Shown: positions 4,273 to 18,895 of the stretch, one piece after another
Numbering within the stretch: position 1 is the stretch's first letter
How the letters are laid out: every line of letters starts with the position of its first letter
IMG/VR virus record: IMGVR_UViG_3300021400_000138
Coordinates: 1 to 64,000 of that record
Length of the DNA: 64,000 nucleotides
Direction: 5' to 3' (one strand)
Source of the DNA: a virus
Taxonomy: Duplodnaviria; Caudoviricetes
Position numbers and translations under genes: made by a program
The notes under the pieces: generated by a model
Seen by the model: the letters and a program-made list of their open reading frames with translations, nothing else
Told to the model about the DNA's origin: nothing
The model's database searches: none

Positions 4273-5125
4273 CTTTTCTTATTAGTAAGGTTCTTTATCC
4301 TTACGCTGAAGTTTCCTTCAGGATTGGACTATATCTTCGCCGTGATATCTATGTAATATTTTAGGCGTTCTGCGCTCGTGCCAAAACATTATGTCATAAA
4401 TGTTTTAGTAGTCTCTAAACCTTTCCTGTTTATTTTAACTGACTTCAACAGGCTTGGTAATTGATTAGCATTATATATATTAGTTTTAAACTTCTGGAAT
4501 ACACTTCCACGTACGTCTTTTGGCTATATTTGATATCGTTGAATGAATGCTTTTATATTTTGATGGCTTATCTAGTTCTGGGAAATAATATCTAACAATA
4601 TCAGCTATACTACTACCATTGTCGTACATTTTTCTGATTTCTAGTACCTGTTCTATACTAAATCTAGATCTTCCATTATTATTCCCTTGTTTACTTTTGC
4701 AAATCGTATCATAATTATTATTCACACTATAATCAATGTTTTCTTGATGACTAACCCATTCAAGATTATCAGCGTTATAATTTGTTCGATCTAGATCTTT
4801 ATGATTTACTTCAGCTCCCTCAAAATATCCTTCTACCCAACCATGAGCCACATATAAATGAACCGGAATACCGCCGCCAAAACAAGGATACCCGTCTTCA
4901 TTTAAATACGTTGTTGCCTTTTGAGATCTTCTAATTGGATTAATAGCAGATCCATCTTCTGCAATTAATTTCCCTCTGCCGCGTAATTCCACATATCTAT
5001 ATTCTTTTCCATTTATAATTTCAGTATACATCAACAATATCACCAACAATATATATTTTAGCTTTTCAATTTTTCACAGAATATCTTTAGAACTAAGTTT
5101 CCTTAGAACTGGGCCAGTCTAATTA
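4273..5125 (-). mobile_element. group I intron (853 nt) in the RNA polymerase gene
   Basis: Exon ends GGGU pairing with IGS GCCC (U-G); terminal G at 4273; core R (UAGAGACUAC) and S (AAGAUAUAGUCC) elements; splicing restores the frame. Confidence 0.9.
4486..5049 (-). CDS. intron-encoded HNH homing endonuclease (probable start MYTEI at about 5031)
   Basis: VHLYVAHGWV...EVNHKDLDRTNYNADNLEWVSHQEN HNH motif with a C-terminal HTH-like region; lies inside the intron. Confidence 0.9.
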   Translation of the reverse strand: MLVILLMYTEIINGKEYRYVELRGRGKLIAEDGSAINPIRRSQKATTYLNEDGYPCFGGGIPVHLYVAHGWVEGYFEGAEVNHKDLDRTNYNADNLEWVSHQENIDYSVNNNYDTICKSKQGNNNGRSRFSIEQVLEIRKMYDNGSSIADIVRYYFPELDKPSKYKSIHSTISNIAKRRTWKCIPEV

Positions 5126-6848
5126 ACCCGTTGTTACGATCCTGGAAATCTGTACCAATCATATTTACTGCAACTATCTGTTTAGAAAATTTGAAGTACT
5201 TATCAAACCTTTCATCATAGTGATTGTGTAAATAAGACATATTAAATCTGCCATTAAATGGACTACGAAATCCAGCAAGATATTCTCCATCTTCAAATCT
5301 TGGAGTATAACATTGAATGGTTCCATCCTCATGCAGAAGTGTATCATCTAAATCACAATCTTTTTCATCACCAGATGCAGCATAAAGCAACATGGCATAT
5401 GGAGAACCAACTATTGTTAAATTATCTCCGTTTTGAATGATCTCCCCAGATTTTATATGAAGAAGATAATTGGAAAGAATAGTAGTTTTTCTATATCTAT
5501 AATAAGAACTTTTTTCAAAATCTTTATTCCATTTACATAATTCTAAAAGAACGTTATAATCATTTGAAAAATTTATGTTCTTACGTAGATATTCTTTGAA
5601 TGCCTCATTGTCATTTTTTAAAAGACTAATACAATCAACAGTTTCTTTACAAACCTGTTCCATTGTGGCTTCATCCAATGAGTTCGTTATCTGGTAACTC
5701 ATCTTTTGATACTCACCAAGCTTACTGGGATGTGAGAACTTTACAACACCAAAATTGCATCCATTGGCTCTTACCCAATCACACCAATATTCATAAGATA
5801 TATTGAACTTGATCCACTTCACCGCGTTAAGCGTGGTCACAATCTTTATATCTTTCAAATAATGATCATTACCCCAATAATCCTTTACAGAATAAGTATT
5901 ATAATCTTTTCCGTGTTCTTTACACCAATCCTTAAAGAATAATTGCATATTCGTATGAAATGCCGCCATCTTTGTAAAATGATGTCGAAGTAGCACATAA
6001 CCATTAGCCCACTCTGGGAATACCGAATCATCAATTAATGCCTGCCCATCAAATAAAGTATTAGATAACTTATATTCATCAATCCAATTAGCAAAACAAT
6101 GTTTATTCGCATTTGTTTCAACGCTAACAACATCGCGTGTAAAGAACCTATCTACATCTTCCATGATCAAAATATTATAAGGATCAACTTGTATTCGTCC
6201 AACAATTCCGCTAGAAATAAGGGGACAATAAGCTGAAGCTTCAACAATCTTAGCATCTGTATCCGGAAGCTTTATTCCCATATAAATAAAGTTGTGTACC
6301 TTATCATAAAGTTCTTCTCGAATAAATGTGCAAGTACCTTTCTTTGCTTTACCAGTTGATCGAAAGAGCATTTTATAATGAATTGTTTCCTTATTGCCTC
6401 TCCTGGAGATATATGTAATATCTACACCATTTTCGTAGTAATAAGTTCTTACATCTTCTTTTGAGTATTTTTTATAAACATCTTTATTCTTTGTTGCATT
6501 CTCGATTAGTTCATTATATTTTTCTCTTTTCGCTTTTGTCTTTTCAATGAGATATTTATCATTCTCTGCAACAGCTTTATTGTATTCGTCTACTGCTTTA
6601 CTAGCATGCGTATATAGATGATTCTTTTCTTCATCATACGACCTGGTTCCGAAGTTAAACTCAAGACAAATAACATCTCTCGTAGAATCTTCTTTGTAAA
6701 CTGATAAACCATTCTCTTTTAGAAAATCCAGAAATAAACTATTCACGAGCATTGCGTCTTTATATTCGTAATGATCGCGAAGACCTTTATTAAATTCAAA
6801 AAGAGTTGCCGCCTCAATGTTCCTAATTCTTACTCCATATTCACTTAT
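5126..6848 (-). CDS. YonO-like single-subunit RNA polymerase, exon 1 (probable ATA start at 6848)
   Basis: RSTGKAKKG, LFDGQALID, LLRHHFTK and FRSPFN motifs; frame open 32 codons upstream of the track ATG; spliced product about 874 aa. Confidence 0.85.
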
Positions 6849-14326: not shown

Positions 14327-14540
14327 ATATGCACAAAAACTATACCTGATTTTTGTGCATATTTTTTTATGCTTTTAATTCTAATTTTTACGGAAAAATC
14401 CCCTTATAGGTGTAAAGGTTAAGAGATAAAAAAGAGTAAAAAATAGTATAGTAAAAATGCACAAAAAAATTATATAAAATTTGTGCATTTTTAAATTCTA
14501 ATTTTTACGAAAAAAAACCTTTATAGGTAAGAGATAAAAA
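14327..14540 (+). promoter_or_regulatory. tandem duplicated operator/promoter module
   Basis: Two copies of TGCACA-N18-TGTGCA, each followed by TTCTAATTTTTACG-N12-TATAGGT and AAGAGATAAAAA. Confidence 0.65.
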
Positions 14541-14585
14541 GTGATTGAAAATTAAAAAATTCAGTCGCTGGTTTATATCTTATAA

Positions 14586-14786
14586 GTACGAAAGTACAGA
14601 TACGGTATATCTAAAATACCGACTGTATATCACGTTACAGTCTAATCTTGCGTGCGGTTTGATAAGCCCAACTTATCACGTTACCGTCTGGTAAACGGTA
14701 ACTCTCAGGAGCAGACCCGTACCAACGGGTCAGGAGTGTCCAAAACAGTGGGCGGCTTGTATATCCTAGGGTACAAGCCGTTTTTT
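14586..14786 (+). ncRNA. candidate small RNA of serial hairpins ending in a terminator
   Basis: Six perfect short hairpins, then GGCGGCTTGTA/TACAAGCCGTT and a T tract. Confidence 0.55.
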
Positions 14787-15019
14787 GATTTTATGCGCTC
14801 CTGTTAAGCTCACGAGTGCAAGCCCTCAGCCGTGGGATTCTCCGGAATCTGGCGGCATGGCGTGAGCGATTCTGACAGATTGCACAAAGTCCGTCGTTAA
14901 TGTTGTGATCCTCCAGGCGTTCTTGTGAGGTTTACCGAGCGCATAAAAATTGTGTGCCGGGTAAACCTTGCAATAACGCAAGGTATAAAATTCTTATACC
15001 GAAAATGGAGGTAGGTATT

Positions 15020-15901
15020 ATGTCTAATGCTATCATCAACACTAGCGAAGTTACTATCAACGCAGCACAGAACACGAAGACTGTTCCGGTTGCCGCCCCA
15101 ATGCGTGATGCTATCATCACTGCGTTAAACGCTGGGAATCCTCATGCAATTAAAGCGTCCGAGGTTCAGTATGCGGGTGTAACTCCCGAAGAGTTTTCCG
15201 CATGGACAACGTGGGTTGAATCTCTGCGTCAGGCATGCATTGAGTACGGTAAGGTCGTTGATGACAAGACGTCCAGCCAGGAACAGTTAGATCTTGCAAA
15301 AGGTCGTGTCTGGGATAAGTGGCGCACTATCCTGAAGGCGGGCGAAGAGGACAAGTTCCACCCGAACATGTTCACCCGTGAACAGGATGCTGAAACCGTC
15401 AGGGTTTACGCTACTGGTATTACTACGCTCACCATCCCGGGCATCGGTTCTGTTGCTTCGGTCACTCCTGCGAATATTTTCCGCAAGATGATCGAAAAAT
15501 TCTTGGGCCTGCGGATCCGTGCTAATGCGGCACTCTGCGATGCGGATAGAGATACGATTGCTAAGTATCTTGGTGCAAAGGCATCGATTCTGAAGGCACA
15601 GGAGCGTCTGAGAGGTCAGGATACTGACGACGGACATAAGCCCGGTTTACTGGAGAACATGGCTACCTTGCAGAAAAGATATGAGGACAGCATTGCGCTT
15701 CTTGTATCTGTTGGTATTGACGAGGACACCGCCAAGAAGAATCCGGCAATGGTGACATTAACCGAGAATATTTCTACAATTGAGGCTCAGATTAAGGCAG
15801 CCAGCAAGACAATCAGTGAAGCTAACACCTTCATCGCAGATAATCAGACCCAGTATGACCGCATCATTGCAACCATCAACAAGATTGAGGCCGGGAAGTA
15901 A
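15020..15901 (+). CDS. hypothetical helical protein (293 aa; start revised to 15020)
   Basis: GGAGGT RBS before ATGTCTAAT; higher GC, biased codons; coiled-coil C-terminus. Confidence 0.8.
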   Translation: MSNAIINTSEVTINAAQNTKTVPVAAPMRDAIITALNAGNPHAIKASEVQYAGVTPEEFSAWTTWVESLRQACIEYGKVVDDKTSSQEQLDLAKGRVWDKWRTILKAGEEDKFHPNMFTREQDAETVRVYATGITTLTIPGIGSVASVTPANIFRKMIEKFLGLRIRANAALCDADRDTIAKYLGAKASILKAQERLRGQDTDDGHKPGLLENMATLQKRYEDSIALLVSVGIDEDTAKKNPAMVTLTENISTIEAQIKAASKTISEANTFIADNQTQYDRIIATINKIEAGK

Positions 15902-16720
15902 TTTCTGGATTTTGTAACTATCTATGCAGAGGACTACCCCGAATAGGGGTAGTAATGCGCTAACCGGATCACCTCCGGTTACTGGTTCCAAGTCCAGAGC
16001 ATTTGTGGAGAGAGTGCCCTAGCCACATTAAATCCAGGAAGAGCGGCTTTGCCAGTACTACGAAAATAACTGGCGGAAATCTAGGTTGTGCTATGGACGC
16101 GTGTAAATAATCCTAGTTGAGGTACATCTACCAGTGGATGTTGCCAAGATATGACCCATTGGGGTACACTGGCAAAATAATCTAAAAGGAGGAACTAATC
16201 CTAGAACCATTGGGCTAGTAATTCGTCGGATGCGGACGTTAAAGAGCCAAGAATCCCGCACCGGTAAGGTTTTGCGACACTCCAAAACCATGTGCGGTTA
16301 AATAGGCAATCTCTGGTAAAAAGGGGTTGCCCGAGTGAGGTTGGTTTCCGGATAATCCAGCTATACCACAATAGCAAAAACCGAATAATCAGAAAGGGGG
16401 TATCCTATGGGTACTGGCTCCCGATAGCTGACCACTCGCGGGGTTAGCTATCTAATCAAACCGCGAGATAGTGCGCCCGGATGTACCGCACGATAAAGAT
16501 AGCTCCGGTGATGTTACCAACCGCATTAGGCAGTGCGTGCTAAAGTACAAAAGTCTGCTATCTCCGGGAACATTATAGGTGAAGGTTGTACCGAGGTGAC
16601 ACGGTCAATAACACGATCCAGAGTCCGCTAAACTCTGGTGATGAAATGCCCGAGTGAGGGTAGCGCCTCACAATAAACCGTGACCACATGACGCCTGGCT
16701 GCAGACGGGTTAATCAACGT
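15902..16720 (+). ncRNA. candidate large structured ncRNA tract
   Basis: About 820 nt, GC-elevated, no credible CDS; many stems, H-type pseudoknot 16423-16467, duplicated TGCCCGAGTGAGG. Confidence 0.55.
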
Positions 16721-17080
16721 GGTACACACAATAACCAACGGGCATTACGCCATGCAGGAAGATGGAAACCCTCTTCGTGGGCCTGCGGCAGATACAGAAA
16801 CGGAAACGGATCTGGCAAGTATTCCATCGTATAAGGGAAACGGAAACCTGTCCAACAACGGAAACGGAAAGGAGTTTCTTATGTTTGAGGTCGTTGTAAC
16901 TTATGAAATGTGTGATGAGTACTGCACATGGTTTGATTCCAGAAAGTTCGGAGATTTTTTTCACGCCTATCTCTGGGCGATCTCCGATCATTCCGGAGAG
17001 GGGGCGGATCAGTATTGTGTTGAAATTAGACACGGCGATCCTCGAAACTGGCGTTTTCTCACTGTTAGTGAAATGATTCA

Positions 17081-17108
17081 TTGACAGCAAAACTTGTTGT
17101 GTTATAAT
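17081..17108 (+). promoter_or_regulatory. sigmaA promoter with extended -10
   Basis: TTGACA-16 nt-TATAAT with TG upstream of the -10. Confidence 0.75.
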
Positions 17109-17198
17109 AATTTCGAGGTTGGGGAACGGAATATATAATTGTTTAGGAATCTATATAACCTTTCTTTCCTCCAACCTCTTTTTAGGGGGTGGTACAAA

Positions 17199-17537
17199 AT
17201 AGTTTCAATTATAAGTAACGAATTCCCGGAAGGGGATGATCGTATCTTGACATCTGCACGAATGAGTGCAGAAAGTTATGCCCAATATCTAAACGGGCTA
17301 TCAAGTTGTCAAAAACTAGATGAAAAAGGGAAACTAATATCCGCAGAATTCGAGGATCCCAATCAGATTCTTTCGTTTCATGCGGGGATAGTAAAAATTC
17401 CGGATAAAACGGAATTTGATAACATTGACATCAAAAATTTTTCCGAAATGTTAAGCTATTTCGATGACGTTGGAATCTATATTGATTCCGGTATTGAATT
17501 CACATTAGTTAAACACATTTATACAGAAGAGACCTAA
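17199..17537 (+). CDS. hypothetical protein (probable ATA start)
   Basis: GGGGGTGG RBS 6 nt before an in-frame ATA; terminator-like hairpin 17526-17553 follows. Confidence 0.55.
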   Translation: MVSIISNEFPEGDDRILTSARMSAESYAQYLNGLSSCQKLDEKGKLISAEFEDPNQILSFHAGIVKIPDKTEFDNIDIKNFSEMLSYFDDVGIYIDSGIEFTLVKHIYTEET

Positions 17538-18064
17538 AAGTGGTCTCTTCTTTATTTGTAAATATAGGAGGTAAATTATGGAATTATATGAAGTAATTAA
17601 CACCTGGGATAATTCCCGTGAATTTATAGGAACATTTAAAGAATGTTGTGATTTCGTCGATAATATGGCGAATTTCACAACTCAGAACTTTGATATCCGG
17701 GAAATTCCGGATGATGAAGAAGATTGATATTTTGTCCTGAGCATGACAATAAACTGCTCTTTCTTTATACCTACATTCGAGATTATGAAATATTTCATAG
17801 TCTGGAATGTGGGCATAACCAACAAAAAAACAGTTTCCAATACGGAAACGGAAAGGAGAAACACCATGATCACCATCCAGCGCAATATGGATGGTACCTA
17901 CACGATTGACATGAAAGTGGAATCTTGCGGACAGACCGCAAAATTCTACGGTACATTCAAGAGTGTAGAATCTTCAGCGGAACCGGATCCCGGATTTCTG
18001 CTGAAAGCTTACTTTGTTGGCGAAGAGCGTGACAACTCAGAAACCTAACGAGTAAGTAGTAACA

Positions 18065-18100
18065 GAGGGGGAACTATTCCACGGAGTAGTTCCCTTTTTT
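18065..18100 (+). terminator. intrinsic terminator
   Basis: GGGAACTATTC-CACG-GAGTAGTTCCC and a T tract. Confidence 0.8.
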
Positions 18101-18895
18101 GGTGATCATGGTGTAAACAACTATGACAAAAAGAATTAAGAACAAGGTTGACGATGCAAAATATACACTTTGGGGACGTTACTCAAAGGGTATATTAATA
18201 CCCATTATCATTACATTATGTATTATCTGCATCGGCTTTATAGATGCTGGTGCAGAAGCGGGCAACTACCCCAAAGTTGAAAATGCAACTATTAAAACCA
18301 TCGTAACATTAGACTCCGGTGATGAATTCGTTGTTTCCGCAAGGGAAACGAAAGTAACAGTTAATACGTACAACTCCTCGGATCCCCGCGATTGGGAGAT
18401 AGGAAAGTGGTGATCATGCGAAGGCAGCCAACTTTCAAATTCGCAAAGCGGTTGCTAATCATAGTTCTCGCAGCCGCTATCATTGTATCATTTTTTAAAA
18501 AGGGAAACCAATTCACGGTACCACATAAATGGTACTACATACAAGATCTTGTGGATGTTTAAGCAATAATACGCACACAGCTACGCCTGAGTTGCCCGAT
18601 GTGGACGGCGGTTTGGGTGGATAGTACGTATAAAATTGTGAAACTTCACTTTAAATCTTGACGGAAATGCAAATAATAAATATCATCTCAAACAAGAAAG
18701 GAAAACTAAATATGGCAGCTAAGAAGGCAAACGTAACTGTAACTCTTGAATTTGAAAAAGCAACTAAAAACACGATCAGATTTGCTGAGGCCCTTGCTTC
18801 TGAACTTGATGCTCCGGTAATTGGCACAATCTATGTGCCGAAGGCAACTCTGAAACAAATCGGTTGGGCGGAAGGTAAACCGCTCACAGTAACTA

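Follow-up and report, generated by a model that had tools for sequence, protein, structure and literature searches.

A 795-nt structured phage RNA predicted to be released by a twister and an HDV-like ribozyme

The window analyzed here, comprising the first 64 kb (64,000 nucleotides, nt) of the 185,390-bp genome of an uncultured virus with direct terminal repeats (IMG/VR record IMGVR_UViG_3300021400_000138; Duplodnaviria, Caudoviricetes), contains a gene-free tract that is probably the source of a 795-nt structured noncoding RNA, made by self-processing and belonging to an uncatalogued phage family. Genes to the left of approximately 11.6 kb lie on the minus strand, and a long plus-strand block starts at 12.2 kb. 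Near the start of this block, a gene encoding 444 amino acids (aa) is followed by a 750-nt gap and then by the gene for a 293-aa protein (P0001; 15020–15901, plus strand, from its translation). The next gene on the open reading frame (ORF) list encodes 67 aa and occupies 16881–17084 on the same strand, and neither the list nor the sequence itself contains a credible gene between 15901 and 16881. An earlier note on this DNA had described a protein gene followed by ornate RNA structure ending at 16720; the gene-free tract extends to 16880, and the shorter boundary missed a hepatitis delta virus (HDV)-like ribozyme at 16749–16828. All of the stems listed in that note were located at their given positions, both by checking the sequence and with folding and search tools, and the structure of the tract goes beyond what chance would give.

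Comparison of the whole window with all of Rfam gave two matches, one to a transfer RNA (tRNA) and one to the type-P5 twister ribozyme (RF02684; plus strand, 15925–15997), which at 40.1 bits (E = 7e-5) passes the curated gathering cut-off of 37.6. When positions 14700–17300 were searched with cmscan at E ≤ 10, the twister was accompanied by chance-level matches only, with no GOLLD, ROOL, OLE, group I or group II intron, tRNA or transfer-messenger RNA (tmRNA) model among them. ARAGORN called no tRNA or tmRNA in positions 14402–18380 of the window (L001) or in seven relatives. The twister class was reportedly described by Roth et al. in 2014. As in type-P5 members, the window copy has the order P2′, T1, P1 hairpin, U^AAUGC, P3 and P4 with the loop GUNNCAAGN, and it has both tertiary pseudoknots. 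Its helices are P2 (15926–28/15956–58), T1 (15931–33/15987–89), P1 (15934–40/15946–52), T2 (15959–60/15992–93), P3 (15961–68/15974–81) and P4 (15982–85/15994–97), and the ribozyme alignment places the predicted cut between U15953 and A15954. The inner hairpins of the earlier note are therefore parts of this ribozyme: ACTACCCC/GGGGTAGT is P1 with one flanking A-U pair, TAACCGGA/TCCGGTTA is P3, and the T-arm-like CTGG-TTCCAAGT-CCAG is P4 with the conserved twister loop.

Homologous loci, numbered L002 onward, were gathered through the 293-aa protein and examined for covariation. Five of them (L002, L008, L009, L010 and L101) carry the same twister 0–25 nt past the stop codon, at 34.7–48.2 bits. 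When these were aligned with the window copy, 94% of cells paired and 15 of 27 pairs, T1 and T2 included, showed compensatory changes; none of 500 shuffles reached the observed pairing and covariation values. Compensatory changes affect all seven P1 pairs and five of the eight in P3, a helix that is optional in this class, while P2 and P4 are invariant and 100% paired. Two of three T1 pairs covary, as GGA/UCC, GUG/CAC and GCA/UGC, and T2 changes from GC/GC to AC/GU. GCAGAG, UAAUGC and the core of the P4 loop are invariant across the six twisters, as is the U-A dinucleotide before AAUGC at which cleavage is predicted (6/6). These alignments identify the first domain as a type-P5 twister ribozyme, with cleavage itself being predicted. 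Directly after the stop codon, TTTCTGGATTT (15902–15912) pairs with AAATCCAGGAA (16030–16040) on the plus strand in the outer stem of the earlier note, 11 bp including one G-U, at the position expected for twister P5. This stem is long-range, set off from the twister core by 12 and 32 nt, and would be able to hold the tail of the cut messenger RNA (mRNA) paired to the released RNA. The P3 hairpin at 15966–15976 reads GGAUCACCUCC, which we take to be the anti-Shine-Dalgarno end of bacterial 16S rRNA, and two AAAGGRGG motifs occur in the RNA, at 16186 and 16394. Since the P3 sequence is not kept in the relatives, the likeness is probably a coincidence.

At the distal end of the tract, the Rfam model of the Faecalibacterium prausnitzii-type HDV ribozyme (RF02682) matched L010 (48.6 bits), L005 (44.9), L009 (34.4) and L006 (32.5), the first two passing its curated cut-off of 44 bits. 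Because the same model gives the window only 10.5 bits, we built our own model, R2, from the HDV-like ribozymes of five relatives, with the window excluded and P2 left out of the model. R2 matched 16749–16828 on the plus strand at 25.2 bits (E = 3e-4), its sole match in the window, and had no match in the other 121 kb of the genome; the site is where relatives carry their Rfam-detected HDV-like ribozymes. The nested double pseudoknot is complete in the window: P1 (16749–51 and 16754–58 with 16782–89), P2 (16761–67/16822–28; GAUGGAA/UUCCAUC), P3 (16769–71/16779–81) with the 7-nt L3 UCUUCGU, and P1.1, a UC/GA pairing read by eye. P4, a dispensable helix of this fold, is weak and enlarged. C16816, within the J4/2 sequence GGCAAG, aligns with GGCUAA or GGCAAA of the relatives and is the candidate catalytic C. 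In 11 instances of the fold, pairing holds in 89% of cells and covariation in 19 of 20 pairs, with the P2 pseudoknot included, and the 2-nt P1 bulge of the window copy is also present in L006 and L009. HDV-like ribozymes cleave at their own 5′ edge, and we therefore predict a cut between C16748 and G16749, 5′ of G16749. The sequence A(C/G)(A/G)GAAACGGAAA occurs three times across 16794–16870, from the HDV-like P4 to within the leader of the gene that follows, and these copies overlap a AAGGGAAA motif.

The folds and positions of both ribozymes are observed. No other self-cleaving ribozyme was detected in the 185-kb genome, and this points to a dedicated role at this locus. The first ~75 nt of the ornate structure belong to a known class and the last 80 nt of the tract are HDV-like, so that both ends are processing devices that lie outside any novel fold. 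The interior matched no Rfam family at E ≤ 10; the earlier remark that the tract cannot be assigned to GOLLD or ROOL agrees with this.

The two ribozyme alignments delimit a predicted excised RNA of 795 nt (15954–16748, plus strand) with a predicted 5′-OH at A15954 and a 2′,3′-cyclic phosphate at C16748. Its minimum free energy is −259.5 kcal/mol (z = −2.9), and it folds better than 20 of 20 shuffles. Conserved interior blocks were found by BLAST in L002, L100, L005, L006 and L010, and a model of the 3′ domain, R3, gave one match in each of these five loci and the window, and none elsewhere. All six distinct loci of the RNA family are on metagenome phage contigs. The interior is 72–75% identical to that of L002 over 280–370 nt, where the L002 protein is 49% identical to the 293-aa protein and most of the protein-coding DNA gives no alignment; in this comparison, the RNA interior is better conserved than the DNA of the neighboring gene. 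For the 3′ half, RNAalifold predicted 60 pairs from five sequences, 23 of them with compensatory changes, and for the 3′ domain 32 pairs from six sequences, 12 with such changes. Interior conservation and covariation are thus observed directly. Substitutions track base pairing, which argues against the tract being a set of small protein genes or a degenerate intron or mobile element. Its longest frames are 51 aa on the plus strand and 66 aa on the minus strand, and gene callers do place ORFs inside the tracts of L008, L009 and L100. However, these ORFs are not common to the relatives and matched no family, the tracts of L002, L005, L006 and L010 hold no called genes, and group I and group II introns are without a match at E ≤ 10, so that we consider a coding, intron or mobile-element origin extremely improbable.

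As read from the sequences, the interior has at least three H-type pseudoknots. It also has a conserved hairpin at 16051–16074 (plus strand; GCCAGU/ACUGGC with the 12-nt loop ACUACGAAAAUA), identified from alignment A1 and the BLAST blocks, whose stem is replaced in L002 and L006 by the compensatory UCCGGU/ACCGGA around the same loop. Pseudoknot A (16118–16171, plus strand) comprises the hairpin GGUACAUC...GAUGU(U)GCC and a pairing of its loop, CCAGUG, with the CACUGG of 16166–16171; in L005, where the block is 80% identical, it reads GGCGCA/UGCGCC with the loop pairing GCCAGU/ACUGGC, this pseudoknot being a direct reading of the sequences. Pseudoknot B (16423–16467, plus strand) is exactly the H-type pseudoknot of the earlier note, with S1 at 16423–33/16442–52 and S2 formed between loop 16435–41 and 16461–67. 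It recurs with changed letters in four relatives, so that 5 of 5 sequences having the region contain it, with 10–11 bp in S1 and 7–9 bp in S2; these lengths were measured in each sequence by script because MAFFT had shifted the element by one column between sequences. Pseudoknot C (16468–16508, plus strand) has a stem at 16468–75/16487–94, which covaries (UA to AU, GC to CG), and a loop CCGGA (16477–81) that pairs with UCCGG (16504–08). This loop pairing reads GGAGA/UCUCC in L005 and GCAAGA/UCUUGC in L006.

The conserved 3′ domain (16588–16748, plus strand) is closed by AAUGCCCG (16645–52) and CGGGCAUU (16739–46) and carries a 2-nt tail, AC. Its closing stem, in which L010 has C-G in place of a G-C pair, stops two bases short of the HDV-like cut. 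The 3′ end of the RNA is thereby paired with 16645–52, and the 5′ end pairs with 15999–16003. The duplicated module of the earlier note is real and partial, with 40 identical columns between 16305–16385 and 16627–16685, including an exact 13-mer, TGCCCGAGTGAGG. In L010, both copies of the module have CCCC and the single 3′ partner has GGGG. Since the two copies share one partner strand, alternative pairings, and hence a switch, are possible.

Complete tracts of 0.5–1.2 kb with few or no called genes follow the homologous gene in L002, L005, L006, L009, L010, L102, L103 and L104; the contigs of L007, L008, L100 and L101 stop before the next gene. R3 detected no diverged copy of the 3′ domain in L007–L009 or L101–L104. 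In all loci examined, a boundary device stands right after the stop codon, and its type varies. The 5′ device of L005 is a tRNA-like element (4890–4985) with a 7-bp acceptor stem, a T-arm with a UUCAAUC loop and a long extra arm, and that of L007 is a T-arm/acceptor minihelix (4920–4955) at the position of the twister. ARAGORN calls neither as a tRNA, and these elements suggest that processing by RNase P or RNase Z is an alternative way to the same 5′ boundary. A terminator hairpin closes the gene in L006 and L100; behind it come an AT-rich stretch, which may hold a promoter, and then the RNA. A family-specific twister model found no hidden twister in L005, L006, L007, L100 or L102–L104. From these comparisons, the RNA appears as the constant unit and the front cutter as interchangeable among a twister, a tRNA-like element and a terminator with an AT-rich stretch. 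The back can vary as well: directly after the conserved CGGGCAUUA, at the position of the canonical HDV-like ribozyme of other relatives, L002 (5878–5965) and L100 (1955–2035) share a different conserved element. Its HDV-like P1 covaries (CUCACCA/UGGUGGG versus CCC-UCCAC/GUGGA-GGG), and P2 (GCGACAA/UUGUCGC), P3/L3 (CCC-UCAGYAC-UGG) and P1.1 are HDV-like as well, but 17–25 nt are inserted after P3, ahead of the 3′ strand of P1. This element escapes detection by both RF02682 and R2 and may be a variant self-cleaving ribozyme.

In the more distant relatives L102–L104 (~30–35% protein identity), HDV-like ribozymes directly follow the stop codon and recur ~430 nt farther on, and L102 also has a strong pistol ribozyme (69 bits); the interiors of these loci lack the 3′ domain recognized by R3. 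Ribozyme sites in these loci are L102:6595–6665; L103:4498–4560, 4938–5026 and 5325–5391; and L104:4581–4638, the three copies in L103 being HDV-like and lying in one gene-free tract of 1.1 kb.

Several points weigh against dedicated excision of a particular RNA. In related phages, ribozymes of the HDV-like, pistol and twister classes stand at several gene boundaries, which fits a general punctuation of transcripts. In L009, the twister and HDV-like bracket encloses an interior without similarity to that of the window, so the bracket may matter more than the particular RNA inside. In the window itself, the HDV-like copy fails the RF02682 cut-off and may be slow or inactive, because its P1 has a 2-nt bulge and its P4 is degenerate. 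None of the five other twister-bearing relatives has a stem equivalent to the P5-like outer stem. Finally, the covariation statistics are thin because the RNA is known from six distinct sequences only.

A rival proposal is that the ribozymes only punctuate a polycistronic early transcript, setting mRNA ends and stability, with a functionless untranslated spacer or leader between them. The three ribozyme classes at several gene boundaries of distant relatives, the boundary device directly after the stop codon in all loci examined and the unrelated interior of L009 all favor it, and ribozymes are known to cluster near phage genes in a pattern that has no explanation so far (PMC6765202, PMC3088659). 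Against this, conservation is higher in the interior than in the coding DNA beside it, covarying helices and three pseudoknots are present there, and L006 and L100 keep the RNA behind a terminator without a 5′ ribozyme. As no other ribozyme occurs in this genome, general punctuation does not apply here. We therefore regard punctuation of a functionless spacer as quite unlikely and favor a self-processed noncoding RNA.

The signals around the tract bear on how such an RNA could be made. A weak terminator-like hairpin lies at 15891–15908. From 15909 to 17080 the sequence is free of terminators and strong promoters, and at 17081–17108 a perfect extended sigma-70 promoter (TTGACA, 16 nt, TG, TATAAT) overlaps the stop codon of the 67-aa gene. 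With only the weak hairpin and no strong promoter inside, the 293-aa gene, the RNA and the 67-aa gene look like one unit, and we infer co-transcription of the region, cleavage by both ribozymes and stability of the product. Under this scheme, the three would be transcribed as a single unit, and the twister would cut 52 nt past the stop codon. The upstream mRNA would then terminate in the P1 hairpin and bear a cyclic phosphate, and the RNA would begin with a 5′-OH at A15954. The freed end could fold into the AAUGC/GCAUU helix. The HDV-like ribozyme, cutting at its own 5′ edge, would create an exact 3′ end two bases past the closing stem, and its fold would become the 5′ end of the mRNA for the downstream 67-aa gene. 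The released RNA would be a compact multi-pseudoknot molecule acting on its own, and the role we think most likely, as a guess, is a translation-linked or decoy one during early infection.

Cleavage by twister and HDV-like ribozymes leaves a 5′-OH and a 2′,3′-cyclic phosphate. These predicted termini are the ends that RtcB needs, and both RNA ends lie in or beside helices, which would suit a host ligase of the RtcB type joining the excised RNA into a circle, as is done with engineered constructs flanked by twisters. However, neither RtcB nor an Rnl2-type ligase was found in the phage genome, and the RNA ends are paired not with each other but with separate internal strands (15999–16003 and 16645–52). 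Where relatives have no 5′ ribozyme, the RNA would start with a triphosphate or with an end made by RNase P, neither of which RtcB could use. Circularization of the released RNA is therefore improbable.

The earlier note had proposed a large ribonucleoprotein. The large, conserved, structured noncoding RNA is borne out; for the partnership with the 293-aa protein, the one link is conserved synteny. The gene followed by a ribozyme-delimited noncoding tract is an order held from 61% to ~30% protein identity, and longer members of the protein family have an N-terminal SAP or Rho_N helix-extended-helix motif, a nucleic-acid-binding motif, above Pfam cut-offs. Against a ribonucleoprotein, the window protein lacks the SAP/Rho_N motif, is acidic (isoelectric point 5.8) and has no match to an RNA-binding fold, and a terminator separates gene from RNA in L006 and L100. 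The tracts of distant homologues, and that of L009, also lack the 3′ domain, and protein and RNA thus do not covary as a pair. A ribonucleoprotein of the two is therefore doubtful. The protein family is an orphan with 156 representative clusters at 50% identity; the 293-aa protein had no Pfam or PHROG match and no cultured-phage homologue by tblastn. Its AlphaFold model (predicted local distance difference test score 82) is mostly helical with a C-terminal coiled-coil hairpin. Foldseek returned no PDB or BFVD match to this model at E ≤ 0.001, and its VIA-align matches were rejected as generic coiled-coil hairpins (Z 8–10, under the meaningful level for helical models).

The RNA may also contain a minigene. 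A Shine-Dalgarno-like AAAGGGGG and a six-codon frame occupy 16394–16427 on the plus strand, the frame running from the ATG at 16407, six bases past the motif, to the TAG at 16425–16427 (ATG GGT ACT GGC TCC CGA TAG, MGTGSR*). Five sequences keep the Shine-Dalgarno-like motif, a start codon (ATG or GTG), Gly-Thr-Gly-Ser-(Arg/Thr) and the TAG, which lies inside S1 of pseudoknot B, and five of the eight variable columns are at third codon positions. Since the segment in part also forms a covarying hairpin, this conservation is not proof of translation, and on the alignment we give translation of the frame no more than an even chance. A further reading would make the excised RNA a translation-directed effector that loads and stalls host ribosomes or drains specific tRNAs as peptidyl-tRNA, and/or is circularized by host RtcB: an abundant, nuclease-protected RNA with a strong Shine-Dalgarno site, a conserved MGTGST/R minigene and a stop codon locked in a pseudoknot. 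We consider this combination rather unlikely. The bar minigenes of phage lambda are two-codon minigenes, and if the effector reading were true, the RNA would be their large, ribozyme-matured counterpart.

Searches beyond the metagenome contigs gave no further members. Cultured phages yielded no relative by DNA search or tblastn, and IMG/VR none by protein or protein-alignment search; a broader 35-sequence protein alignment was too divergent to serve as a query. The pattern GGTACACACAA-N6-9-GGGCATT had one match in IMG/VR, attributable to chance, and 16 in GTDB contigs, none of them real by R3. Of its 86 matches in metagenome contigs, all except L090 were chance, most being one repeated bacterial-gene-like sequence. 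On the minus strand of the same genome, at ~166369–166437 (L110:2969–3037), we also noted a skipping-rope RNA (RF02924) with 43.5 bits against a gathering cut-off of 36.7.

Both ribozyme classes are known. Unlike the usual twister, the window copy immediately follows a stop codon and marks where a large RNA begins, as its 5′ boundary, and its P5 is long-range and unconserved. Like the HDV-like ribozymes of gut phages and Faecalibacterium (RF02682), the 3′ ribozyme is a nested double pseudoknot whose cut at its own 5′ edge would trim the 3′ end of the upstream RNA, and unlike members of that family its P1 is bulged, its P4 is enlarged and weak, and its score is under the Rfam cut-off. Kienbeck et al. 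(2024) described theta ribozymes together with 493 HDV-like matches not associated with tRNAs, which lie in long noncoding regions of gut phages and have no known role (PMC10879173). The RNA trimmed here, unlike that of theta ribozymes, is a structured RNA of ~0.8 kb and not a tRNA. GOLLD (RF02032) and ROOL (RF03087) resemble the window RNA in being phage-borne, 0.6–0.8 kb long, rich in pseudoknots and conserved (PMC5737381, PMC12286853). The window RNA differs from both in having no sequence or structure match to either, and its family is much rarer, with six sequences found. GOLLD and ROOL RNAs oligomerize, and we know of none that is bracketed by self-cleaving ribozymes. Engineered cassettes do use such brackets, as in hammerhead-guide-HDV transcripts and the twister-flanked 'Tornado' circular RNAs. 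In these, as predicted here, a 5′ and a 3′ ribozyme free an RNA with exact ends from a longer transcript; the window arrangement differs in being natural, in combining two different ribozyme classes and in giving no sign of circularization. Clustered self-cleaving ribozymes also flank prophage genes, with their purpose unproven (Perreault et al. 2011, PMC3088659; reviewed in PMC6765202). The window ribozymes likewise lie close together in a phage transcription unit; unlike those clusters, they are the only pair in the genome, and they bracket a conserved noncoding RNA instead of genes. In the published literature searched, we found neither this RNA family nor any case in which two ribozymes from different classes excise a large structured RNA.

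The roles of most bacterial and phage self-cleaving ribozymes are unknown (PMC6765202). This locus offers a concrete and testable job for them, in which two ribozymes of different classes would cut one large structured RNA free, one at its front and the other at its back. Because its ends are defined, the RNA is suited to in vitro production, structure determination and functional tests, and the new family joins GOLLD and ROOL on a very short list of large, intricately folded phage RNAs.

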